Below are positions 18,198-53,680 of a DNA stretch of 57,866 nt, piece after piece. The notes under the pieces are model-generated. The model was not told the DNA's origin and made no database searches. It worked only from the letters and a program-made list of their open reading frames with translations. The DNA is from Thermoplasmata archaeon (GTDB taxonomy: Archaea; Thermoplasmatota; Thermoplasmata; Lutacidiplasmatales; UBA184), in assembly GCA_035632035.1 (NCBI GenBank), contig DASQHP010000037.1, positions 1 through 57,866 of the forward strand, in the 5' to 3' direction. The translations under genes and the position numbers were made by a program. Position 1 is the first letter of the stretch. Each line of letters starts with the position of its first letter.

Positions 18198-19259
18198 TCA
18201 GGGCCGAACGCGCTCGAGCGACAAGAATCGCACCGGGCGCTCCGCGTCCACCGACGCGACCACGAACTCCTTGCGGACCCCCTGGGCGACGCGGACGCCG
18301 CCGGCGACGTCCGGCCAGCTCGCGACGTGGGAGGACGGGAGCGCCTGGACGAGGTAGCGCGCGTGCGCGTGTTCCGGATTGCGGGGGTAGGCGCGGAAGT
18401 GGGCTCCGTACTTGAATCCCGTCTTCACGACCAGGCGCCGCTCGCGCAGGGAACGGAAGGCGGCCAATCGCTCGGGGAACCGGGGGTCGAGCCGCCGGGC
18501 GAGCTTGCGCAGCCGGTCGAGGGTCACGATGCGCCGGCTGACCGCGCTGCGGAGCACGAGCTGGCCGCTCTCGAGCAGGTACGCGGCCTCCAGTAGGCTC
18601 ACCTCGAGGCGGTCGCCGATCCGGCTCCCGAACGCGAGGTTGCGCCCGAGCGCGTCGACCGCGGCCGCGTCGAAGATGGTGACGCGGTCGTGGGCGAGCC
18701 AGCCGGCGGCGGGCGTTGCGAGCGGCGTCGGGGCAAGCGCACCCACCGGGCTCGGCCGCCGCAGGCGGTAGTAGGTGAGGTCCGATTCCTCGTCCACGAG
18801 GGCCAGCAGGAGCGACTTCTTCGCCCCCTGGGCGCGGTCGGCCAGGTCAAAGAGCCCGCCCAGGTCCACCGGCACGCGCTCGGAGTAGACCGCGACCCAG
18901 AACCGGGCCGGGGTCTTGTGCAGAGTCCCCCCCCGCGGGAGGACCGCGAACTGAGTCGGAGGCGGGCTCGCCCGGACCACGTAGCCGCGCTGTCGCAGGT
19001 CCCGGTAGACGATGTAGCGCACCGCGAATCCGTGCTCGACCCGGGCCGCGCGGCGGAAGAGGTCGGACCAGTCGACGGGCCGACCGGCCGACGAGCGCAC
19101 TTCGAGCCGTTTCATCTCGGCGAGGTACACCGATTCGTACCGGTCGAGCGTGAGACCCCCGTCCACCGGGGTCCCGAAGAACCCCCTCGCGTAGACCGTG
19201 GAGGCCTCGCCCGGCTCCGTCACCTCGACCGTGGCGTCCGGTCGGACGCGTCCGCTCAC
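18198..19259 (-). CDS. endA: tRNA-splicing endonuclease, tandem-repeat (alpha2-type) architecture
   Basis: ORF 18198..19670, trimmed to GTG at 19259 (GTGA overlap with the pyrE stop), giving 353 aa. The C-terminal catalytic half has VVKTGFKYGAHFRAYPRNPEHAHARYLV...VAQGVRKEFV. The N-terminal half is a degenerate duplicate (YIVYRDLRQRGYVV..). Confidence 0.8.
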   Translation of the reverse strand: MSGRVRPDATVEVTEPGEASTVYARGFFGTPVDGGLTLDRYESVYLAEMKRLEVRSSAGRPVDWSDLFRRAARVEHGFAVRYIVYRDLRQRGYVVRASPPPTQFAVLPRGGTLHKTPARFWVAVYSERVPVDLGGLFDLADRAQGAKKSLLLALVDEESDLTYYRLRRPSPVGALAPTPLATPAAGWLAHDRVTIFDAAAVDALGRNLAFGSRIGDRLEVSLLEAAYLLESGQLVLRSAVSRRIVTLDRLRKLARRLDPRFPERLAAFRSLRERRLVVKTGFKYGAHFRAYPRNPEHAHARYLVQALPSSHVASWPDVAGGVRVAQGVRKEFVVASVDAERPVRFLSLERVRP

Positions 19260-30135: not shown

Positions 30136-32541
30136 TCACCCGTTCCGCTCGATGGAGCGCTCGTATCGCTCCAACATCTCCAATCCGAACTGGATTCCGC
30201 GGCCGCTCTCGGCGAACGAGTTTGCCGTCAACCACCGTTCCATCTCGGCCCGGCGCCCGATGCCGAGCGATGGGATCGCCGCCTGAAGGAACCGGCCGGC
30301 CGAGCCAGTGCCCGCGGTGAGTCGGGCGATGTCGCCCATCCGGTCCTGGAGGAACTGCCAGGTCGTGCCCGCCCGCTCGGGGTTGTGATAGATCGCGGCA
30401 CCGAACACCGCGCTCCAGACCCCGATGGGAATGGAGCCGGTGAACGCGAGGTCGAGACACTCCCGGAGCCGGTCGGGGCGATCCGTGCAGCCGAGGGCGA
30501 CCGCGACCTGGCGGCCCGCCTCCACCCCGGTGGCGGTCGACAGCCGCGCCCGAAGGGCCTCGTAGCCCGCCTCCCCCCCAGTGATCGCGGTCGCGATCAG
30601 GACCGCGCCGGCCACTTCGGCGGGCAACTGGTCGACCTCGAAGAATCGGTCCGCGAGGCTCCGCGCGAAGGCCGGGTCGAGATGCGCACGGGCCTCGATG
30701 AGCCCCTCCCGCATCCCCCGGACGCGATCCCCTTCGGGCGCGGCGGAGGAAAGACCGATCCGCTCGAGCTGCGCCTGGACCACGCGCCCGAGATCGCTCT
30801 TCCACCGCGGGATCCGATGGATCAGGGGGTGGTGGATGTAGAACGTGTGGGACACCTCGTCCACGACGAACGGCTCGGGGTCATCCCGCGCAGCGGCGAG
30901 CACTTCGAGGTACTCCTCCAGCTCGGACTCCCCGGCGAGGTACAGGGCGAGCGCGTCGTTGAGGAGCCCCCACCGGTCGATCGCTGGCAATGTTCGGGCC
31001 GACGCCCGGACCTCCCGAGCCAGTTCCCCCTCGTACCGGACGCGATAGAATCCGGTTCGGCCGGGGTTGGCCACGACCCGGCTCCCCGACACCCCTTTCC
31101 ACTCGACCGACCCGACGTCCACGAGCCGACGCTCGAGCCGCCCGTCCACCATGAGGGTGAACGGGATCGGCCAGGGCGGGTCCGAGTTCCCCGGGTTCGA
31201 CCCGAACCGGCGCTGGGCGAGGCGCAGCCCGTCGGAGGACCTGGAGACGATGACGAGCGGGAAGCCGGGACGGTCGATCCACGACCCCAGGATCCGCTGC
31301 ACGTCCTCCTTCGACTCGGCCGCCAGCGCCTGCCAAAGGTCAGCGCCGTCCGCGTTGCTCCCCTGGTGGAGTCTCAGGTATCGCTGGACCCCGGAGCGGA
31401 ATGACGTCTCCCCGAGGAATCCTTCCGCCATCCGCAGGAGGCTCGCGCCTTTCCCGTAGCTGATCTGGTCGAAGATCTGTTGGATCTGGTCCGGATTGCT
31501 GACCTCGGCCCGGACCGGGTGGGTGCTGGGCAACGCGTCCCACATCATCGCCCCGGCGGTCTGGTCGCGGAGGAAATGCTCCCAGGCCCGCCATTCGGGG
31601 AAGAGCGCGTTGACGGCGCGGAACCCGACAAACGTGGCGAAGCTCTCGTTGAGCCACAGGTCTTCCCACCAGCGCATGGTGACGAGATTCCCAAACCACT
31701 GGTGGGCGATCTCATGCGCGAGCACGTCCGCGAGCATCATGCGCGTCGACGGAGGGGACCGCTCTCCCAGCAGCAGGTAGTACTCCTGGAACGTGATCGC
31801 GCCCCAGTTCTCCATCGCCCCGGAGCCGTAGTGAGGGATCGCGATGAGGTGCAGTTTCGGCAACGGGAAGGGGATCCCGTAGTAGTCGCCGAAGTACTGC
31901 AGGATCCGGCTCGCGTGTTCCACCGCGAACTGCCCGTCCTTCGACCTTCCCTCGGCGGCCGCGACGATCACTTGGGGAGCAGGCGATGGCCCTTCCAGGA
32001 CCTCGAACGGCCCGACTCCGATGTAGAGGAGGTACGTGGCCATCGGGGGAGTCGGGGCGAAGCGGGTACGGACGCGGCCGTCCGGGAGGGTGGTCTGCTC
32101 GACCGGGGGTGTGTTCGAGATCGCGAGGTGGGCGGACGGATGCGTCAGCTCGATCGCGAAGACGGCCTTCCGGTCGGGGCGGTCGAGGCACGGGAGCACT
32201 TGCCGGGCGACGGTTGGCTCCAAGTCGGTCGTGTAGACGCGGCCACGGCCGAGTGGCGAGACGTAGAACCCCGCGAGCCCCCCGTCATCGATCCGGCCCG
32301 AGTAGTGGACCGTCACGGGTCCGCCGGGGTCGGGAATGGGGCCGATCCGCAGCTCCCCCGCGTCCTTCCGGATCTCGAAGGGGACCGGGCCCGCCGGCGT
32401 CTCGACGGACGCTACGGCGAGGCCGACCGAGTCGAGGGTCAGGTGATCGGGCAGCTCGGGAGAACCTATCCGGACGACGCCCTGAAAGTCGAGGGAGTCC
32501 GCCGCCACCTCGATGGCGAGGTCGTATCGCAGGTCCTTCAT
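30136..32541 (-). CDS. M1-family aminopeptidase (tricorn-interacting-factor F2/F3-like)
   Basis: ORF 30136..32739, trimmed to ATG at 32541 (MKDLRYDLAIEV...), giving 801 aa. Contains GAMENWG and HEIAHQWFGNLVTMRWWEDLWLNESFA. Confidence 0.85.
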   Translation of the reverse strand: MKDLRYDLAIEVAADSLDFQGVVRIGSPELPDHLTLDSVGLAVASVETPAGPVPFEIRKDAGELRIGPIPDPGGPVTVHYSGRIDDGGLAGFYVSPLGRGRVYTTDLEPTVARQVLPCLDRPDRKAVFAIELTHPSAHLAISNTPPVEQTTLPDGRVRTRFAPTPPMATYLLYIGVGPFEVLEGPSPAPQVIVAAAEGRSKDGQFAVEHASRILQYFGDYYGIPFPLPKLHLIAIPHYGSGAMENWGAITFQEYYLLLGERSPPSTRMMLADVLAHEIAHQWFGNLVTMRWWEDLWLNESFATFVGFRAVNALFPEWRAWEHFLRDQTAGAMMWDALPSTHPVRAEVSNPDQIQQIFDQISYGKGASLLRMAEGFLGETSFRSGVQRYLRLHQGSNADGADLWQALAAESKEDVQRILGSWIDRPGFPLVIVSRSSDGLRLAQRRFGSNPGNSDPPWPIPFTLMVDGRLERRLVDVGSVEWKGVSGSRVVANPGRTGFYRVRYEGELAREVRASARTLPAIDRWGLLNDALALYLAGESELEEYLEVLAAARDDPEPFVVDEVSHTFYIHHPLIHRIPRWKSDLGRVVQAQLERIGLSSAAPEGDRVRGMREGLIEARAHLDPAFARSLADRFFEVDQLPAEVAGAVLIATAITGGEAGYEALRARLSTATGVEAGRQVAVALGCTDRPDRLRECLDLAFTGSIPIGVWSAVFGAAIYHNPERAGTTWQFLQDRMGDIARLTAGTGSAGRFLQAAIPSLGIGRRAEMERWLTANSFAESGRGIQFGLEMLERYERSIERNG

Positions 32542-32751: not shown

Positions 32752-33432
32752 ATGGGTGGGGCGGACAGCCTGCCGCCGACCGGGGCGGCGCCATCAGAGG
32801 GCATACTGGGCCGGGGTCTCGACGACCGGCGGCTCGAGCTGCTCATGCGCATCCACGAGAACGGCATGCGCGCCATGCTCGGGGTGACGAAGCACGAGAA
32901 CTGGCGCTCGCGGCCCCATAACACGAGCTACTTCGATTGCATCATCGGGGCGAGACTGGCCCGGATGGCCTACGACAGGTTCCGGACGGCGCCGGAGCCG
33001 GTCCGGGACTTTCTGCGACTCCATCACGTGCACGAGCTCTGCCACTGCACGATGGAGCGGCACCCCGTGCCCCAGCCGTTGGCGGACCGCATCTCCTCCC
33101 TGCTGGAGAAGGTGATGACCGATCACGGCCTGGTCGCCTACCTCGCCTGCGCGCAGCTGACCGCCGAGCGCTCGGCGTTCGGGGTCGCGATGTTCGGCCG
33201 GTTCGACGACGACCCCCACACGACCACGAAGGGCGGTCTCGACGAGTTCTACCACACGACGACCCCGCTCCTCCTCCTGGCCTACCTCGCGCCGAGCGAG
33301 GAGGAACTGGAGCAGGCGATCCGCGACCAGGAGGAGCTCCTCGCCCTGATGAAGGTCCCCACGGCCGGCCTCTACGCCCCGTCGCTCGAGGTCCGCTGCA
33401 CGCTCGCCGGCCGGGACGCCCACAACGTCTGA
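32752..33432 (+). CDS. Hypothetical protein with an HExxH motif (possible small metallopeptidase-like)
   Basis: 226-aa ORF; the true start may be an internal Met (MRIHENG / MRAMLG). Contains LHHVHELCHCTMERH. No family was recognised. Confidence 0.35.
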   Translation: MGGADSLPPTGAAPSEGILGRGLDDRRLELLMRIHENGMRAMLGVTKHENWRSRPHNTSYFDCIIGARLARMAYDRFRTAPEPVRDFLRLHHVHELCHCTMERHPVPQPLADRISSLLEKVMTDHGLVAYLACAQLTAERSAFGVAMFGRFDDDPHTTTKGGLDEFYHTTTPLLLLAYLAPSEEELEQAIRDQEELLALMKVPTAGLYAPSLEVRCTLAGRDAHNV

Positions 33433-33450: not shown

Positions 33451-33551
33451 TGCTCCCGGCGGGAGTTTCCCCGGCGGGGGTACCCCGTCGGTTTTGAACC
33501 CGCGTCAGAGGCTCGAGAGGCCTCTATCCTTGACCACTAGACTACGGGAGC
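33451..33551 (-). tRNA. tRNA-Glu (anticodon CUC) interrupted by a 28-nt intron in the T-loop (position 59/60)
   Basis: Minus strand reads GCTCCCG TA GTCT AGTGGTCAA GGAT A GAGGC CTCTCGA GCCTC TGAC GCGGG TTCAAA [28 nt] T CCCGC CGGGAGC A. After removing the insert, this is a 73-nt cloverleaf with a perfect 7-bp acceptor stem, 5-bp anticodon and T stems, U33, and a T-loop of TTCAAAT. CC follows the discriminator. Confidence 0.8.
33465..33492 (-). other. Predicted tRNA intron (ACCGACGGGGTACCCCCGCCGGGGAAAC) with a bulge-helix-bulge context
   Basis: See the tRNA finding: the hBHBh' structure can be drawn by hand with both predicted cut sites between the 2nd and 3rd nucleotides of 3-nt bulges. Confidence 0.65.
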
Positions 33552-33655
33552 GCCGCGTGCGGCTAGCGGACCGCTGTTTTGAGGCTTTCGACGTCCGGGT
33601 ACCGGACCCGGCCGGGGCCGACAAGGGCTAAGTCTCCGGTCGCGCTGCGCGGAGC

Positions 33656-34099
33656 GTGACTCCGCCCGTGAAGGCCCGCAGTGGCCACATCCTCCTCGAC
33701 GCCAAGCGATCCTACAAGGACCTGGTCCGGGTCTACCCCGAGATCCACAAGCGCGTCGTCGAGGCGAATCGCCCGTTCTTCAAGGAGACGGAGCCGATGA
33801 TGCCAGATGTCCTTCTGGAGGAGAACCTCCGGGACATCCGCGCGAACCGTAAGCCGGCCGGCTACAACCGGCCCGACGCGTTCGGCATGCGGCTCGTCTT
33901 TCCGATCGTCGACCCGAAACGGGCCGAGTTCTACTTCTCGAAGCCGTCCCGGTGCCAGGAGATCGTCCAGATGACGGAGCTCGTCTCCCAGATGCTCCGT
34001 CGACGCGGACTCCGACACTCCGTCGAGTACGACCGGCTGCAGCTCGGAGCCCCCCGGAATCCGCCCGGGTACCCGGCACCCGCGCCCTCCGGCGCGTAA
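33656..34099 (+). CDS. Hypothetical protein
   Basis: 147 aa with a GTG start. The composition is protein-like (KRSYKDLVRVYPEIHKRVVEANRPFFKETEPMMPDVLLEENLRDIR...). The overlapping minus-strand ORF has shadow-frame composition. Confidence 0.4.
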   Translation: MTPPVKARSGHILLDAKRSYKDLVRVYPEIHKRVVEANRPFFKETEPMMPDVLLEENLRDIRANRKPAGYNRPDAFGMRLVFPIVDPKRAEFYFSKPSRCQEIVQMTELVSQMLRRRGLRHSVEYDRLQLGAPRNPPGYPAPAPSGA

Positions 34100-34113: not shown

Positions 34114-37100
34114 TTACGGAGCCGCGGGCGGGCGCCGAAGGGCCCAGAACCCCGTGGCCGTTTCCGTGGTCCGGAGCTGGCTCTGCAGGAGCTGCAGCGC
34201 CTCACGGGCCTTCGCGAGGGCGGTGCCGTAGTCGCTGGCCCGCAGCTGGATCGACTCCTCCAGCAGCGCGCGCGCCGGCGTCGTATCGACCTTGCGCTCC
34301 GTGGCCCGCGCGAGGGCGGCGTCGATGAGGTAGTGGAGATTCATGAGCTCCCGATGAAGGGCCTTTCGGCGGTTGAGCTCCTCCGAGGCGTCCAGAAGCG
34401 CGTGGGCCGCCGGGAGGACCTGGCCCTCGCGGACCAGCTTTGAGACGTTCTCGAGACTGTGGGCGACCGGCTCGACCGAGACGTGGAGCCCCTCCCGCGC
34501 GAAATTCAGCTCGGTGGTGACCTCATCCAGCTTCTCGTCGAGCCGCCCCCGAACGAGGTGGCGCAGCCGCTCGTCCGCCTGCGCGAGCAGGGCATCGACC
34601 GGCTCGAACCGGCTCGCCTGGACAGCGAGACCGGCCTCGCTGAACAGCTCCATCACCGGTGTGGTGTCCAGGCCCAGCTTCTCCCCGACCCACAGTCGGT
34701 CCTTCAGCTCGGCGAGCCGGCTCTGGTACTTTCGTTGCCGGAGTTCCTTGAGACGAGCCTCCTCGGCATCGATGAGGTCGAGCGCGCCCCCGAACTCTCC
34801 CGCTTGGCTCGCCGCGCTCACCCGGGCCGTGAACTGGGTGCGGGCCTCGGCCTCGATCGAAGAGGTCTCTGCGCCCTCCGCGGGCGCGGGCAGGATGGCC
34901 CGCTCGCGGGATTCGATGAAGGCGAGCAGGGCGTCGCGGATCGCCCCGCGCGACTTGGCAAGCGCGTCCTGAGCGCGCGACCAATCGCGAGCCCCGGAGG
35001 CCTCCTCGGCATCGCCGAGGCTGGCTTCCGCGCTCTCGAGTCCCGTCGGAACCCCCCGGGCCTGCGCCAACTCGTAGAGCCGCCGGACGTCGGCGAGAGC
35101 CTCGGAGTACTGCCGTTCGAGCGCCCACCGGGCGGCCTCCGACGACTCCCGGGCGAGTCGAGTGGAATCGCCGTAAGTGCCGGATTGATGGGCGGCGCGA
35201 GCCGCCTCGAGCGCCGGCAGCGCCCGGCTGGTGTCCGCGCCCATCTCCATCGCCTCCTTGACCTGGCGGTCGGCGGCATCCAGCGCCTCCCGGGAGCGTC
35301 GGAACCCGTCGCGCGCCGAGTCGAGCGCCTCCGACAGGTCGATCGCGTGGGAGAGAACGTCACTGTAGGCATGGCTGGATAGGGCGCGGCGAGCTTGCTC
35401 GATCTCCCGGTCGGCCTCGACCGAGCGGACACCTTCTTCCTGGGCGGAGGTGAGCTTGCGTTCCATCGCCTGGATCGACCCTTCGGCGATCCGCAGCTGG
35501 AGCTCCACCCGCTCGAGCTCCCCGCCCGCGAGCGCGGCCTTCTGGAGGGAGTCGAGCGGTCGGCCTTCTTCGAGCGCCGCGCGGGCCTGTCGGAGCAGGT
35601 TCTCCGCGACGGTCGTGTCGCTCCCCTCGTGCCGGGCGCGGGCGATCGTGGCCTGGATCCCGGCCAGCGTCCGTCCGACCTGCTGGGCCGTGGCCTGGAT
35701 CATCTCGCGCTCCAGAGTGGACGCGAGCTCGATCACCTTCGCATACTCCTTCCGCGAGAGGGCTGCCTCGACCACGCTCAGGCGGTCAAGCGGTTCCCGG
35801 ACGTTCACGCGGGCGAGCTCGGCCCCGCTGAGCGCATCCCTCGCCCGGCGGAGCCCGCGCTCGGCGTGCTCGAGGAACCCTCGGGACTCCACGAGCTTAG
35901 AACGGGCCCGCTCAAGGACCTCGGCCACACCGCTCGGGACGGGAAGACCCAGTCGGCGGCGGGCGTCACCCAGGAGCTCGGCCACATCCGGCGCGTCGAC
36001 CCCGGTCGACCTTGCCACTTCGAAGTCCTGCTCGATCGTCCGGAGGTGGTCGGATAGAACGGGACGGAGCAGCTGGATGAGGCCCCCGTGGGCCGAGCGC
36101 GCGAGCGCCTCCGCCTCGGCGAATTTTCCCGCGGCGACGAGGCCGTCCAGCTCGGTGAGCTGCGAACGCACGGTTCCCGTGTCCAGGCCCAGGCGCTCGG
36201 CGTCCTCAGAGAGCAGCTGCGCCTCCGCGGACAGCCGACGGGCCTCCGCCTCCGCTCGGGCCGCGGCGAGCGCCGTCGATAGCGACTCGAGCTGCGCCAG
36301 GGCCCCGTCAAAGTCGAGCGCCTGGTAGGCGATCCGGGTCAGTCGGAGCTGCTCCCGATAGGCGTCCACGGAGATCCCCGACTCCTTGAGCGACTGGAAC
36401 AGGTCGGCGGTCTCGGACATGCCATCGAGGATCCGCTGCGCCGTCGCCTTGGTCCGACCCGCCGCGTCCAGGACCTCCTTGGCGGCCTGGAACGCGTCGG
36501 CGTAGCGACGCTCCCGGGCGGCGGCCTGGGCGGTCTCGAGCCGGGAGCGTAGCGGTCCGGGCTCTAGCCCCATCTTGCCGAGCTCGACCAGCGCGAGCTT
36601 CGCATGGGAGACCGCGTCCTCGCTGCGGACGAGCTGCTGCTGCTGGGCCCGCGTCCGGATCTCCTGGGAGGTACGCGAGGCCTTGACGAAGTCCCCCATG
36701 TTGAAGATCTGCTGGACCTCGTCGATCTGCCGTTGGATCTCGTCACCGGTCCCGCCCATCTCCTCGAGGACCTTGCGCTCCTCCTCGAGCATCTCCACGA
36801 GCGTCGAGGCGTGTGCGGCGAAGACCGCGGAGAACTCCCGCTCCGCGCGGCGGAGGCTATCGATGGAGCCCGGAAGATCCTCCTTCACCCGGAGGTTCAC
36901 ATCCGCGTCGGCGAGGAGCCGGCGGACGGGCGCCACCAGGGATTCGTCCGGGATCTCCTTGAACCCGCTCTCGAGCTCCTCCACCCGGCGCGCGACATAG
37001 GGCCCGGCGGCCGTCCGGAGCGCCACCTCCACCGAGGCAGCCTGCTCGGCGGCCTCGGCGAGCTGGCCGTTCTCGAGGAGCTGGCGAGCCCGGGCAAGCT

Positions 37101-38568
37101 GTGCCTCGGTGTCCGGGGGCAGGAAGCTTCGCTCGCGGGCCATGAGTATGACCCGCTCGAGGGCGGCGAACCGGTCGGAGAAGTAGGCGACGGTCTCCGC
37201 GCCCAGTCGTCGAATCGTCTCCGCGAGGAGCTGGCGGGCCGGCTCGAGCTCGACCCGGTCGAGCATGGAGGCGATCCGGTCCAGCGTCTCGGCGTGGATG
37301 GCGGTGGGGAACCGCGAGGTCGCGAGTCGGCCGAGGAGATCCCGCAGGGAATCTGCTTCGGACCGGGCGCTGTCCAGCTCGGCCGTGAGCTGGGCGACCC
37401 GGTCGGCTGCCTCCTGGCTCGCCGCGAGCGCCTCGCTGTAGATCTTGAGGCGGAGCGCTTCTCGGGCCCGGTTCATCGCGGAGAACACTTCCGTCGCGTC
37501 CCGACCCAGGCGCCGGGCCTCCACGAGCTTCGGCCGGACACTGTCGAGCAGGCTCGCGACGATCCCGACGACCGGCTCCTCCGTCGCCGCTCGGGCGGTC
37601 TGGAGAAGCCTCGGGAGGTCGGCCGGGCCCGCCGTCGGCACCTTGCCCCCGACGTCCTCGACGATCACGAGGCTGGGCGTCGGGTCAACGTCGTACTCCC
37701 GGACCGACTCGAGCGTCCGCCCGAGCGCCTGCACGACCTGGGCGACCTTCTCCCGCAGCGCGTCGGCCAGCTGGCCCGCCTCGCCCTCAATGCCGACCAC
37801 GGTGCGCGGCCAGTCGATGGGGGGGGATTCGGCATCGGCCTGGAGCGCGGTCCCGAGCTGGGTGGTGGGGACTCCCAGGTCCCGGCCTGCGGCGAGGATC
37901 TCGGCCCCCATGCTGCGGGCCGCTTCGCGCCGTTTCGCGCCCTCGGGGACCTCGTCGACCAGCAGGCGATTGATCCGGTCCTGGCCCTCCGCGAGCTTCC
38001 CTTCCGTCACCGGCTCGACGGCGGTCCGGAATAGGCCCTCGAGTTCCGCGAGCCGGCCCGGTGTCTCGCCGGCCCACTCCGCGTAGCCGCGGGCTCGGGT
38101 CCGAAGCTGAGCGGAGAACTCCGCCTGGGCGGAGTGGATCCATTTGTCGAGCTCGGTCAGCCGACCAACCGTCCGGGACCAGTCCTCATCCGTCCCACCG
38201 GGGGCCACGCCCGCGAGGGCCTCGGAAAAGCCGTCGGGAAGCGGAAGGCCGAACTGGACGAGCCGGTCGCCCCGTTCGGCGATCTGCTTACGCTTTCCCT
38301 CGAACGCCGAGCCGGCGTCGGTGACGATCTGCTCGTGGAGCGCCTTCGACTGGGCCTCGACGGCGGGCCAGTCGGAATGCCGGACGAGCTCGAGGATCTG
38401 CGCTTCCTTCTCCCGGGCGCCGGGAAGGACGATCTCGATGGCTTCGAGCTGGCCGATCCGCTCCTGGACTTCGTGGAGCGCGGTCTCCGCGGACTCGCGC
38501 TGCTTCTTCAGCAGCGCGGCCTTCTCCTGGAGGATCTTGGTAAGGCGGGAGGAGGGAACGGTCCCCAA
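34114..38568 (-). CDS. Giant (1484 aa) cytoplasmic all-alpha repeat / coiled-coil protein
   Basis: One uninterrupted ORF with a TTG start at 38568. There is no signal peptide or TM segment. The composition is Ala/Glu/Leu/Arg-rich, with at least 15 copies of a helical-hairpin module (see finding). Confidence 0.7.
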   Translation of the reverse strand: MGTVPSSRLTKILQEKAALLKKQRESAETALHEVQERIGQLEAIEIVLPGAREKEAQILELVRHSDWPAVEAQSKALHEQIVTDAGSAFEGKRKQIAERGDRLVQFGLPLPDGFSEALAGVAPGGTDEDWSRTVGRLTELDKWIHSAQAEFSAQLRTRARGYAEWAGETPGRLAELEGLFRTAVEPVTEGKLAEGQDRINRLLVDEVPEGAKRREAARSMGAEILAAGRDLGVPTTQLGTALQADAESPPIDWPRTVVGIEGEAGQLADALREKVAQVVQALGRTLESVREYDVDPTPSLVIVEDVGGKVPTAGPADLPRLLQTARAATEEPVVGIVASLLDSVRPKLVEARRLGRDATEVFSAMNRAREALRLKIYSEALAASQEAADRVAQLTAELDSARSEADSLRDLLGRLATSRFPTAIHAETLDRIASMLDRVELEPARQLLAETIRRLGAETVAYFSDRFAALERVILMARERSFLPPDTEAQLARARQLLENGQLAEAAEQAASVEVALRTAAGPYVARRVEELESGFKEIPDESLVAPVRRLLADADVNLRVKEDLPGSIDSLRRAEREFSAVFAAHASTLVEMLEEERKVLEEMGGTGDEIQRQIDEVQQIFNMGDFVKASRTSQEIRTRAQQQQLVRSEDAVSHAKLALVELGKMGLEPGPLRSRLETAQAAARERRYADAFQAAKEVLDAAGRTKATAQRILDGMSETADLFQSLKESGISVDAYREQLRLTRIAYQALDFDGALAQLESLSTALAAARAEAEARRLSAEAQLLSEDAERLGLDTGTVRSQLTELDGLVAAGKFAEAEALARSAHGGLIQLLRPVLSDHLRTIEQDFEVARSTGVDAPDVAELLGDARRRLGLPVPSGVAEVLERARSKLVESRGFLEHAERGLRRARDALSGAELARVNVREPLDRLSVVEAALSRKEYAKVIELASTLEREMIQATAQQVGRTLAGIQATIARARHEGSDTTVAENLLRQARAALEEGRPLDSLQKAALAGGELERVELQLRIAEGSIQAMERKLTSAQEEGVRSVEADREIEQARRALSSHAYSDVLSHAIDLSEALDSARDGFRRSREALDAADRQVKEAMEMGADTSRALPALEAARAAHQSGTYGDSTRLARESSEAARWALERQYSEALADVRRLYELAQARGVPTGLESAEASLGDAEEASGARDWSRAQDALAKSRGAIRDALLAFIESRERAILPAPAEGAETSSIEAEARTQFTARVSAASQAGEFGGALDLIDAEEARLKELRQRKYQSRLAELKDRLWVGEKLGLDTTPVMELFSEAGLAVQASRFEPVDALLAQADERLRHLVRGRLDEKLDEVTTELNFAREGLHVSVEPVAHSLENVSKLVREGQVLPAAHALLDASEELNRRKALHRELMNLHYLIDAALARATERKVDTTPARALLEESIQLRASDYGTALAKAREALQLLQSQLRTTETATGFWALRRPPAAP

Positions 38569-52153: not shown

Positions 52154-53126
52154 GAGCCCCCTTCGGCACGACGAGGTCGGTGCCGGCCGGGTCCGCGCGC
52201 ACGACGTACGCCGCGCCTCCGGCCCGCTGCACGCGTCGCGTCGCCTCCGCCTCGCGTCCACTCCGGACGAGGGCGACGATCGATCCCCCCGCGCCGGCCC
52301 CGGTGAGCTTCGCCCCCTCCGACACGGGCCGCACCGCGTCCAGGAGGGCCTCCAGCCGGGGGTGGGAGACTCCGACCTCCCGCAGGAGGGCGTGGTTCCG
52401 GTCGAGGAGGGGACCGATGGCGGCGCGGTCCTCCCGCGCGACCGCCTCCACGCCGAGCGTGGCCACCTCTCGGAACTGCTCCAGCAGGCGGGAACCATCG
52501 GGCTCCGAGAGCCGGCGCTCGACAGCGCGTACGGCGTCGGCGGTGCTCCGGGGCACTCCCGAGTAGGCGACGAGCCAGACCCACCCGGGGTCGGTGACCC
52601 GTCGCGCGGTCCACCGGTTCGACCCGTCGCTCAGCTCCCAGAGGAGCGCCCCGCTCCCGGCATTGACCGCCACATACCCGCCGCCGACGACCGCGGAGGT
52701 GTCCCCGGGGCTCCCGACGCCCTGGGCAGCGCGTTCGATGGCGAAGCTGTGCTCGGCGAGCAGGGAACGCTCGACCCCGCCCCGAACCGCCGATAGGCCC
52801 GCGGCAAGGGCCGACGTGAACGCCGCCGACGACCCGAGCCCCGCGGCCCGGGGGATCCGGGAGACGACCTCCACGTTGAACGCTCCGTACGCGTCATCCC
52901 AGAGCCGCTCGCGAGCCGCCTTGAGATACGGGTGGGCGCTCGCCGCCTCGGTCGATCCGTTGAGGCGATAGTCGGGAGACGGAGTGATCCCGAGCTGCAG
53001 GGGAAGGTCGATCGCGAGCAGGAGCTCCGGTTCTCCCCGGACGACGGCGTGCTCCCCGAAGAGGATGCACTTGCCGGGAGAGCGGCTCGAGACCGGCAAT
53101 CCGCTGGCGGCGATGGCGTCGTTCAT
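52113..53126 (-). CDS. mvk: Mevalonate kinase (GHMP family)
   Basis: 337 aa. Contains PGKCILFGEHAVV, PRAAGLGSSAAFTSALA and KLTGAGAGGS. An ATGA overlap with the trm56 stop lies at 53123-53126. Confidence 0.8.
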   Translation of the reverse strand: MNDAIAASGLPVSSRSPGKCILFGEHAVVRGEPELLLAIDLPLQLGITPSPDYRLNGSTEAASAHPYLKAARERLWDDAYGAFNVEVVSRIPRAAGLGSSAAFTSALAAGLSAVRGGVERSLLAEHSFAIERAAQGVGSPGDTSAVVGGGYVAVNAGSGALLWELSDGSNRWTARRVTDPGWVWLVAYSGVPRSTADAVRAVERRLSEPDGSRLLEQFREVATLGVEAVAREDRAAIGPLLDRNHALLREVGVSHPRLEALLDAVRPVSEGAKLTGAGAGGSIVALVRSGREAEATRRVQRAGGAAYVVRADPAGTDLVVPKGAPSAGLRSAPPPPP

Positions 53127-53680
53127 GAAGGGCCTGGCTCCCGACGCGCTCGACGCACTTCCTTCCCTCGGGCGCGGGGGACGATCTCGTGGGTCGCCCC
53201 CTCCCAGGCTCCGGCGGGTGGGAGTCCTCCCAGCCGGTCGAGGACGATCGCGAGCGCGGCTACCTCGCTGTGCGGCTGATGCCCGACCGCGACGTTGAAC
53301 GTGGCCAGTCGGTACAGATCCGCCGGCACCTTCGCCCCTCCGACCACGACGAGCAGCGGGCGCTGCCGGTCGATCCGGGGGATCACGGCATCGAGCGGCT
53401 CTCCGTACATCGTCAGATGGAGCACCGTCCCCTCGAACTTCCGGAGGAGGCCTCGCCAGTCTCGGACCCCATCGACCTGGAACTTTCCCCCCCAGCGTTC
53501 AGTCACGCGGCGCAGACGGTCGGCGAGGGCGGGGTCGGGGGGCTCGAGGAACAATCCCGCCGCGCCCAGCGCGCGGGCGGCCAGGGCCACGTGCGTCGTG
53601 AGCCGCGGATCCCGGCCGGCGCGATGCCCGAGCCGGAGGACGCGGATCTCCGGGGCGCTAGGTCTCCGCGGGCGGGGCAT
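53123..53680 (-). CDS. trm56: tRNA (cytidine56-2'-O)-methyltransferase aTrm56 (SPOUT)
   Basis: 185 aa. Contains VLRLGHRAGRDPRLTTHVALAARALGA...HLTMYGE...LLVVVGGAKVP..LY..A.FNVAVGHQPHSEVAALAIVLDRL. Confidence 0.75.
   Translation of the reverse strand: MPRPRRPSAPEIRVLRLGHRAGRDPRLTTHVALAARALGAAGLFLEPPDPALADRLRRVTERWGGKFQVDGVRDWRGLLRKFEGTVLHLTMYGEPLDAVIPRIDRQRPLLVVVGGAKVPADLYRLATFNVAVGHQPHSEVAALAIVLDRLGGLPPAGAWEGATHEIVPRARGKEVRRARREPGPS

Follow-up and report, generated by a model that had tools for sequence, protein, structure and literature searches.

A tRNA-Glu gene interrupted in the T-loop

The stretch of DNA analysed here, the whole of which we call the window, is a 57,866-nt contig of a Thermoplasmata archaeon (DASQHP010000037.1, assembly GCA_035632035.1) that encodes, on its minus strand, a precursor of tRNA-Glu(CUC) with a 28-nt insert in the T-loop (all positions below are those of the window, and tRNA notation is counted along the minus strand). 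The coding region of this pre-tRNA comprises 101 nt (33451..33551), with G1 at 33551 and the discriminator A73 at 33451. By parsing of the sequence, the 5' exon covers tRNA positions 1-59 (33493..33551) and reads, 5' to 3', GCTCCCG TA GTCT AGTGGTCAA GGAT A GAGGC CTCTCGA GCCTC TGAC GCGGG TTCAAA, that is, the acceptor strand GCTCCCG, the D arm (GTCT/GGAT), the anticodon arm (GAGGC-CTCTCGA-GCCTC) with the anticodon CTC at 33517-33515, also called as ctc by ARAGORN, the variable region TGAC and the 5' strand of the T stem, GCGGG, followed by the beginning of the T-loop. Next come the insert itself, ACCGACGGGGTACCCCCGCCGGGGAAAC (33465..33492), located between T-loop positions 59 and 60 and matched by homologous inserts at the same site in at least 103 further loci, and the 3' exon (33451..33464), T CCCGC CGGGAGC A, which consists of U60, the 3' strands of the T stem (CCCGC) and of the acceptor stem (CGGGAGC), and A73. 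The sequence of the 3' exon occurs only once within the window. The residues C74 and C75 are encoded in the genome (33449..33450, minus strand) and are followed by a T in the window, so that A76 is not encoded; about 84 of the 103 listed orthologous loci described below have CC 3' of the discriminator, and the base after these two positions varies over the 103 loci, being T in 52, C in 32 and A in 19.

The unspliced locus is poorly recovered by standard detectors: ARAGORN draws a distorted, truncated tRNA-Glu(ctc) of 75 nt (33477-33551), and the Rfam tRNA model matches 33481-33551 with 29.4 bits, against a threshold of 29. Without nucleotides 33492-33465, the sequence is drawn by ARAGORN as a perfect cloverleaf of 73 nt; the predicted spliced sequence is base-for-base identical to three intronless genes found in other genomes (loci L015, L027 and L095) and, in the form of the L015 gene, scores 68.2 bits with the Rfam model, compared to 29.4 bits for the unspliced locus. 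An earlier note on this DNA, made from its letters alone, had proposed precisely this arrangement, that is, a tRNA-Glu(CUC) gene with a 28-nt intron at 59/60 whose removal yields a 73-nt cloverleaf with a TTCAAAT T-loop, and had named rejection by a covariance model as one observation that would speak against it. The arrangement is now supported by comparison with the intronless orthologs, and the covariance model accepts the spliced sequence as a tRNA. The coordinates given in the note were also correct, and what it had left unstated was the strand.

The position of the junctions can be pinned down exactly. Because the first intron base in the window is an A, only the cut at 59/60 gives the TTCAAAT loop that is present in the intronless orthologs. 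Cuts shifted by one nucleotide would produce the loops TTCAACT or TTCAAAA, unlike those of the intronless genes, and were rejected; so was an alternative register with the 5' bulge at A57-A58-A59 and the cut at 58/59, which likewise leads to a T-loop that differs from that of the intronless orthologs. We consider it highly probable that the window locus is a functional tRNA-Glu(CUC) gene with a genuine intron at position 59/60 of the T-loop, held in a motif of the bulge-helix-bulge (BHB) type with both flanking helices (hBHBh'), and, judging from the sequence comparisons, this intron is almost certainly removed by splicing.

Conservation of the intron among Thermoplasmata

The distribution of this gene was assessed by scanning prokaryotic genomes, one for each species, with a pattern that included the D arm and the anticodon loop only. 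The scan yielded at least 119 loci (denoted by L numbers). A T-loop insert of 26-32 nt, at the identical site, is carried by at least 106 Thermoplasmata genomes, namely 103 loci with complete inserts together with L012, L100 and a gene split between L045 and L061 (both from JASHVP01, isolate JOPF208); in these last cases, the short-read assemblies break within the tRNA gene or within the GC-rich intron hairpin, leaving the gene on two contig ends. The carriers include the type genome of the Lutacidiplasmatales, Candidatus Lutacidiplasma silvani AcS3-62 (L082), and another genome labelled Candidatus Lutacidiplasmatales (L017). The intron-bearing loci have an average GC content of 69%, and the window of about 69-70%; the Lutacidiplasmatales have been described as inhabitants of acidic soils with a GC content of about 69%, in a paper that does not mention introns (PMC9287336). 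Most likely, then, the window stems from this order or from a near relative of it.

Among the matches listed, eight genomes possess a 73-nt, intronless gene for the same tRNA (L015, L022, L027, L042, L053, L071, L073 and L095), of which seven are labelled Thermoplasmata and one is labelled 'bacterium'. The latter (L095, JAKBKR010000348.1) is a 2.9-kb contig from the metagenome-assembled genome 'bacterium isolate DX1.bin10' that contains an intronless archaeal tRNA-Glu(CUC), and its bacterial label probably reflects a binning or labelling error.

The exons and the introns show sharply different patterns of conservation. The spliced sequences of 104 intron-bearing genes fall into only four variants, which differ from each other at one or two anticodon-stem pairs, whereas the introns are different in nearly every species. 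To judge by this pattern, it is the splicing motif, and not the intron's sequence, that is visibly under selection. The earlier note would have given up the idea of a functional gene if an intact second tRNA-Glu(CUC) gene were present and the window locus were shown to be untranscribed; no second locus matching the D-arm/anticodon-loop pattern was found in any genome among the matches listed, the sole double hit being the split gene of L045/L061, with the genome of the window itself seen over 58 kb only.

So could the history of the intron be reconstructed? A protein of 147 amino acids (aa) encoded next to the tRNA gene shows 55-62% identity to its counterpart in the window in the intronless loci and 68-89% in the intron-bearing loci, and in a neighbor-joining tree of this protein, five intronless loci form one clade and 98 intron-bearing loci form the other. 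The inference of gain or loss relies on this single short protein, which five of the eight intronless loci carry, and on a distance tree; the pattern fits a single gain, or else a single loss in the sister group, with subsequent retention in every sampled species. Under the scenario that we propose, the intron would have originated once, in the ancestor of a large clade of high-GC Thermoplasmata from soil and peat that includes the Lutacidiplasmatales, and would have been kept since.

There is no sign that the intron has transposed to other tRNA genes. Metagenomes were scanned for an intron of this design flanked by another T stem (TTCAAANCCG..CGGGGAAACTCCD), and none of the nine hits showed T-stem complementarity or a tRNA context; this is a weak negative result because the pattern demands Glu-like intron ends. 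In its intron mode, whose model does not include T-loop introns, ARAGORN found no other credible tRNA within the 8-kb loci, and its additional calls in Thermoplasmata loci were judged spurious, given that they lie inside protein-coding genes or imply kilobase-sized 'introns'.

A different kind of interruption was observed in four low-GC (29-32%) genomes of Nanoarchaeota/Pacearchaeota among the matches listed. In these, a tRNA-Glu(CUC) gene with the same D arm and anticodon loop as the window gene contains an unusually long intron, of about 108-121 nt, at the ordinary anticodon-loop position (L041, 6890-7071, plus strand; L099, 153-335, minus strand; L063 and L114, 1218-1411, minus strand).

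The bulge-helix-bulge motif

In the window, all elements of a BHB motif can be assigned at the two junctions. Helix h is the 5-bp T stem. The central helix H is formed by U54 U55 C56 A57 (33495..33498) and by the GGAA at intron nucleotides 23-26 (33467..33470), with the pairs U54-A26, U55-A25, C56-G24 and the non-standard A57.G23. The 5' bulge consists of A58-A59-a1 (33492..33494), with the predicted cut between 33493 and 33492, and the 3' bulge of a27-c28-U60 (33464..33466), with the predicted cut between 33465 and 33464, so that either cut falls after the second nucleotide of its bulge. Helix h' is the intron hairpin (intron nucleotides 2-22; 33471..33491), with nine positions per strand, eight of them Watson-Crick pairs and one A.C in the window, and a 3-nt loop.

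This structure was examined in an alignment of 103 distinct T-arm-plus-intron sequences, the window included. The T stem is invariant in all 103. The first three positions of the central helix can pair with the intron in every sequence, with switches between U-A and U.G: U54 faces A in 90 sequences and G in 13, U55 faces A in 94 and G in 9, and C56 faces G throughout. The hairpin h' varies extensively while preserving its pairing. It is closed by a C-G pair in 97 of the 103 sequences, and double-sided changes were detected for all nine pairs, with 149 double-change cells compared to 47 +/- 5.5 after shuffling, a level of covariation that was not reached in any of 500 shuffles. Overall, 88.8% of the cells are paired, and this fraction drops to 34-59% once the partners are slid by 1-3 columns. 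Both the T stem and h' were recovered independently by RNAalifold. Both bulges measure 3 nt in every sequence listed; the 3' bulge begins with A in 102 of 104 sequences, its second nucleotide being free to vary.

Thus, the hallmarks of the archaeal hBHBh' motif are all found at this locus: two 3-nt bulges separated by a central helix of four positions, one of which is usually non-Watson-Crick; flanking helices h and h' of at least 2 bp beside the bulges; and, in the predicted product, a standard tRNA that is restored when the precursor is cut after the second bulge nucleotide and the exons are joined. The site, 59/60, is non-canonical. A relaxed form of the motif (hBH, HBh' or BHL) was considered and rejected because none of the 103 distinct sequences lacks a bulge or a flanking helix. 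The motif is also far beyond what chance would produce, since at least 103 further loci with complete introns show this architecture at the identical site, with strong covariation. The near-perfect hBHBh' motif, with the pairs and bulges that the note had drawn, is upheld by the covariation of all nine h' pairs, and the placement of both cuts between bulge nucleotides 2 and 3 by the loop of the intronless orthologs. Folding had been suggested by the note as a check: RNAalifold recovered the T stem and h', and the folding of a single sequence failed to produce the central helix.

The splicing endonuclease and a possible route of maturation

The window encodes a tRNA splicing endonuclease, EndA, of the tandem-unit, alpha'2 type (18198..19259, minus strand). 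The duplicated architecture that had been noticed earlier is evident from two matches each to the Pfam domains tRNA_int_endo and tRNA_int_endo_N and from the alignment of residues 36-335 to the alpha'2 EndA of Archaeoglobus fulgidus (1R0V/2GJW). The C-terminal catalytic unit (169 aa) is colinear with residues 4-171 of the alpha4 subunit of Methanocaldococcus jannaschii (1A79), with only a 2-residue gap, and retains FRAY...HARYLV...VRKE aligned to the region of the Tyr/His/Lys triad. In endonucleases with broad specificity, characteristic loops are found near the catalytic His (L1, or CSL, and L2, or ASL) and in the C-terminal region (L3) (PMC5829648). The alignment to 1A79 reveals no L1, L2 or L3 specificity-loop insert in the window EndA. 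By its sequence, this enzyme, the only one of the clade that was examined, is an ordinary 'narrow' alpha'2 endonuclease.

Such an enzyme is compatible with the intron, for two reasons. Archaeal endonucleases have been reported to recognize the BHB wherever it is located and whether or not the mature tRNA domain is present (PMC8707768, PMC6379350), and the homodimeric EndA of Ferroplasma, also a member of the Thermoplasmata, cuts minimal BHB substrates, even within unrelated hairpins (PMC8707768).

This hypothesis suggests the following route. The T arm of the precursor would mimic an intron-containing anticodon arm, with the T stem in the role of helix h. The central helix would form by pairing of U54-U55-C56(-A57) with the GGAA that precedes the last two intron nucleotides, leaving A58-A59-a1 and a27-c28-U60 as the two 3-nt bulges, and the GC-rich intron hairpin would serve as h'. 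The presumably homodimeric EndA encoded at 18198-19259 might then cut after the second nucleotide of either bulge, and an RtcB-type ligase might join A59 to U60, restoring the UUCAAAU T-loop and giving the expected junction GGGUUCAAA/UCCCGC (rtcB was not seen in the window, where no search was aimed at RtcB). T-loop modifications, including methylation of C56 (Cm56) by aTrm56, would become possible only after splicing.

The ORF at 53123-53680 is indeed aTrm56, as the note had proposed. Since C56 is paired in the precursor, Cm56 should follow splicing; nevertheless, any coupling between aTrm56 and splicing is speculative. That EndA and aTrm56 are both encoded in the window carries no weight in this respect: these are housekeeping genes, located 14 and 20 kb, respectively, from the tRNA gene and not next to it.

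Weighing the alternatives

Several observations run counter to the interpretation of the locus as a functional gene with a spliced hBHBh' intron. The central helix is imperfect at its fourth position: in 80 of the 103 distinct sequences, that of the window among them, A57 lacks a standard partner, and in the other 23 it faces U; the non-standard partner is mostly G (about 80 in a tally that includes one false row), and occasionally A or C. Nearest-neighbor folding of the single sequence does not contain the central helix, and a T arm in the BHB conformation is 2.9 kcal/mol less stable than the minimum-free-energy structure. Such an outcome would be expected for a short helix between two bulges. 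The conservation of the D arm and the anticodon loop is partly a matter of ascertainment because the search pattern fixed these parts, with the acceptor stem, the T arm and the variable region remaining free to vary. Enzymes of the alpha'2 type are considered to have narrow specificity, and the A. fulgidus EndA failed on a relaxed 59/60 substrate of the hBH type (PMC5829648). Finally, the cleavage and ligation steps, the enzyme responsible and the order of modification are what we infer from the comparisons, and only 58 kb of the genome are in view, so that another EndA-type subunit or a further copy of tRNA-Glu(CUC) could be encoded elsewhere.

If the gene were a decaying pseudogene, broken by a random insertion and out of use, the poor, truncated tRNA found by the standard detectors would be readily understood, and the signs of expression at the locus come from its sequence. 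However, the exons are near-invariant in 104 genes in which the neighboring proteins show 40-89% identity; the insert site, the bulge sizes and the pairing have been held through many compensatory changes; a promoter-like box is conserved upstream; and no genome among the matches listed contains a second locus matching the pattern. Decay on such terms is scarcely credible. Hardly better are the prospects of an insert that is transcribed and never removed, persisting as an extra hairpin in an enlarged T-loop, or of the 75-nt ARAGORN model being the real tRNA, either of which we regard as very improbable. It is true that ARAGORN and Rfam manage to fit a tRNA to 33477/33481-33551 and that structurally odd tRNAs exist in archaea (PMC3239211). 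In the short model, however, the acceptor and T stems are mismatched and the score of 29.4 barely passes the Rfam threshold of 29, and perfect partners for the 7-bp acceptor stem and the 5-bp T stem are found directly 3' of the insert in every ortholog. A retained hairpin, in turn, would have no need for two exact 3-nt bulges or for the pairing of U54, U55 and C56 with the intron. It also would destroy the elbow formed by the T-loop and the D-loop, which is universally conserved in tRNA.

Two further possibilities concern how, and why, a genuine intron might be maintained. The imperfect, A.G-containing helix might require an additional endonuclease subunit of broad specificity, encoded in another part of the genome, as could be surmised from reviews in which non-canonical introns are associated with (alpha-beta)2 or epsilon2 enzymes or with L1-L3 inserts (PMC5829648, PMC4033280), as well as from the lack of such an insert in the window EndA and the limited part of the genome in view. 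This option appears improbable given that the two 3-nt bulges and the two flanking helices are complete, which sets the motif apart from the relaxed forms that need broad specificity; that archaeal enzymes recognize the BHB independently of its position (PMC8707768, PMC6379350); and that the same design occurs with a fully Watson-Crick central helix in 23 of the 103 distinct sequences. It is also conceivable that the intron is kept because it is useful, either as a shield against integrase-mediated insertion at the T arm and 3' end of the gene, or as a means to delay T-loop modification and maturation for the purpose of quality control or regulation. No loss was seen in the intron-bearing clade of at least 106 species; gene order breaks at the 3' side of the tRNA gene and is conserved on the 5' side; C56, the target of aTrm56, is paired in the precursor; and the shield idea has been published (cited in PMC3241643). 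On the other side of the scale, the intron sequence is free apart from the needs of splicing, a guide RNA would not fit into 26-32 nt, the window has no att-like repeat of the tRNA 3' end, and the retention is explained equally well by the rarity of precise deletions in an essential, apparently single-copy gene. A useful intron is therefore a tentative idea, and an unlikely one. We are also doubtful that the intron, kept with no loss seen as an order-level clade of Thermoplasmata with alpha'2 EndA radiated, has been selected rather than merely tolerated. Were it so, the intron could serve as a checkpoint in the maturation of the major Glu tRNA in a genome of 70% GC, with splicing preceding Cm56, m1A58 and the modifications at 54/55, or, alternatively, a device that disrupts the 3' segment of the tRNA as an integration target. 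Selection of the intron would also imply that 'narrow' alpha'2 enzymes routinely process an imperfect (A.G) non-canonical BHB, against the textbook rule of co-evolution between EndA and introns.

Relationship to known non-canonical introns

According to the reviews, the introns of euryarchaea whose EndA is of the alpha4 or alpha'2 type are confined to the canonical position, 37/38 (PMC4090602, PMC3241643), and Korarchaeum is the sole alpha2-bearing archaeon with non-canonical introns (PMC4033280). The statement of the earlier note that non-canonical introns are mainly a feature of the Crenarchaeota/TACK archaea and are usually linked to heteromeric or epsilon-type endonucleases agrees with this literature, which refers to TACK and DPANN and to broad-specificity enzymes (PMC4090602, PMC4033280, PMC3241643). 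The closest precedent is provided by ARMAN-2, in which 59/60 introns are known from tRNA-Cys (hBH type) and from tRNA-Pro, the latter with strict hBHBh' motifs at 53/54 and 59/60 (PMC3239211). As in the window, the site is 59/60 and the T arm imitates an intron-bearing anticodon arm, with the ARMAN-2 tRNA-Pro sharing even the strict hBHBh' form. However, ARMAN-2 belongs to DPANN, possesses a three-unit epsilon2 EndA with a specificity loop, and has more than half of its tRNA genes disrupted, whereas the intron described here resides in a tRNA-Glu(CUC) gene of Thermoplasmata, along with an ordinary alpha'2 EndA, and is conserved in more than 100 species.

In Crenarchaeota, and in Thermoproteales in particular, non-canonical BHB introns have been reported in the D-loop, the T-loop, the acceptor stem and other sites (Marck and Grosjean, 2003, as cited in PMC6379350 and PMC3241643). 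The resemblance lies in BHB motifs outside 37/38, including the T-loop, that are spliced by proteins, as is predicted here. The crenarchaeal systems differ in having an (alpha-beta)2 EndA with a crenarchaeal specific loop, often relaxed motifs, multiple introns per gene and evidence of intron transposition; the window gene has a single intron with both bulges intact and, by a weak test, no sign of spread. With the canonical 37/38 hBHBh' introns of Euryarchaeota (the substrates of the enzymes from A. fulgidus, 2GJW, Thermoplasma acidophilum, 2OHC, and Ferroplasma; PMC6379350, PMC8707768), the intron shares the geometry of the motif and the alpha4/alpha'2 class of enzyme, and it differs from them in the location of the motif in the T arm and in the usual A.G at the fourth position of the central helix. 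The tRNA genes of the red alga Cyanidioschyzon merolae also contain BHB-type introns at ectopic sites, one of these introns lying in the T arm, and pose the same question of whether T-loop modification, pseudouridine-55 in that case, comes before or after splicing (PMC3728597, PMC9602550); these are, however, eukaryotic nuclear genes, some of them permuted, with several introns per gene and a different endonuclease complex.

Thus, the mechanism and the 59/60 position are known, the latter from ARMAN-2 and Crenarchaeota, and what is new are the lineage, the enzyme context and the unusually deep conservation. No description of a 59/60 intron in tRNA-Glu of Thermoplasmata was found in the open-access full texts searched, including the paper on the Lutacidiplasmatales (PMC9287336), and such an absence is no proof of novelty. 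The fixation of this intron in more than 100 Thermoplasmata species is contrary to the view, expressed in the reviews, that introns in such archaea are restricted to the canonical position. Taking into account that the window EndA is a plain alpha'2 enzyme, it follows that geometry, rather than position or subunit type, would limit the persistence of introns. The 103 natural variants of the motif represent a data set on the tolerance of alpha'2 enzymes, for example, with regard to A.G versus A-U at the fourth helix position. In practical terms, ARAGORN and the plain Rfam tRNA model mis-call the gene as truncated or barely significant, and such mis-calls can distort tRNA counts and completeness checks for abundant archaea of acid soils and peat. 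The archaeal mode of tRNAscan-SE 2 is designed for the detection of non-canonical introns.

Upstream elements and gene neighborhood

A promoter-like box, CGAAAGCCTCAAAACAG (33574..33590, minus strand), is located at approximately -39 to -23 relative to tRNA position 1. In 102 listed loci, the consensus cGAAAGgCTCAAAGAG is found at -38..-24, and TA at -14/-13 and GGC at -3..-1 are conserved upstream as well. The box resembles an archaeal BRE/TATA element and is predicted to be a promoter, and the upstream motifs might represent a promoter consensus for this high-GC clade of Thermoplasmata.

The gene order is kept 5' of the tRNA gene and breaks exactly at its 3' end. On the 3' side, the window contains an open reading frame (ORF) of 226 aa (32752-33432) and an M1 aminopeptidase gene (30136-32541), neither of which has a counterpart in the other listed loci (L002-L120). 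No att-like repeat of the 3' end of the tRNA was detected in the window, and hence there is no evidence of an integrated element. On the 5' side, the tRNA gene is separated by a 104-bp intergenic region from the divergent ORF that encodes the 147-aa protein (33656-34099, plus strand); this ORF is found beside the tRNA gene in about 105 listed loci, with 55-89% identity (e.g., L009, 4907-5296). The 147-aa, 1484-aa and 226-aa ORFs of this neighborhood have no family match in Pfam and NCBIfam, and an exact-protein look-up of the neighbor ORF returned a single 4.6-kb Logan contig. The 1484-aa ORF (34114-38568, minus strand) encodes a highly repetitive protein rich in Ala, Glu, Arg and Leu that has the look of a coiled coil, and it lies next to the 147-aa ORF in 91 listed loci, with 32-65% identity.

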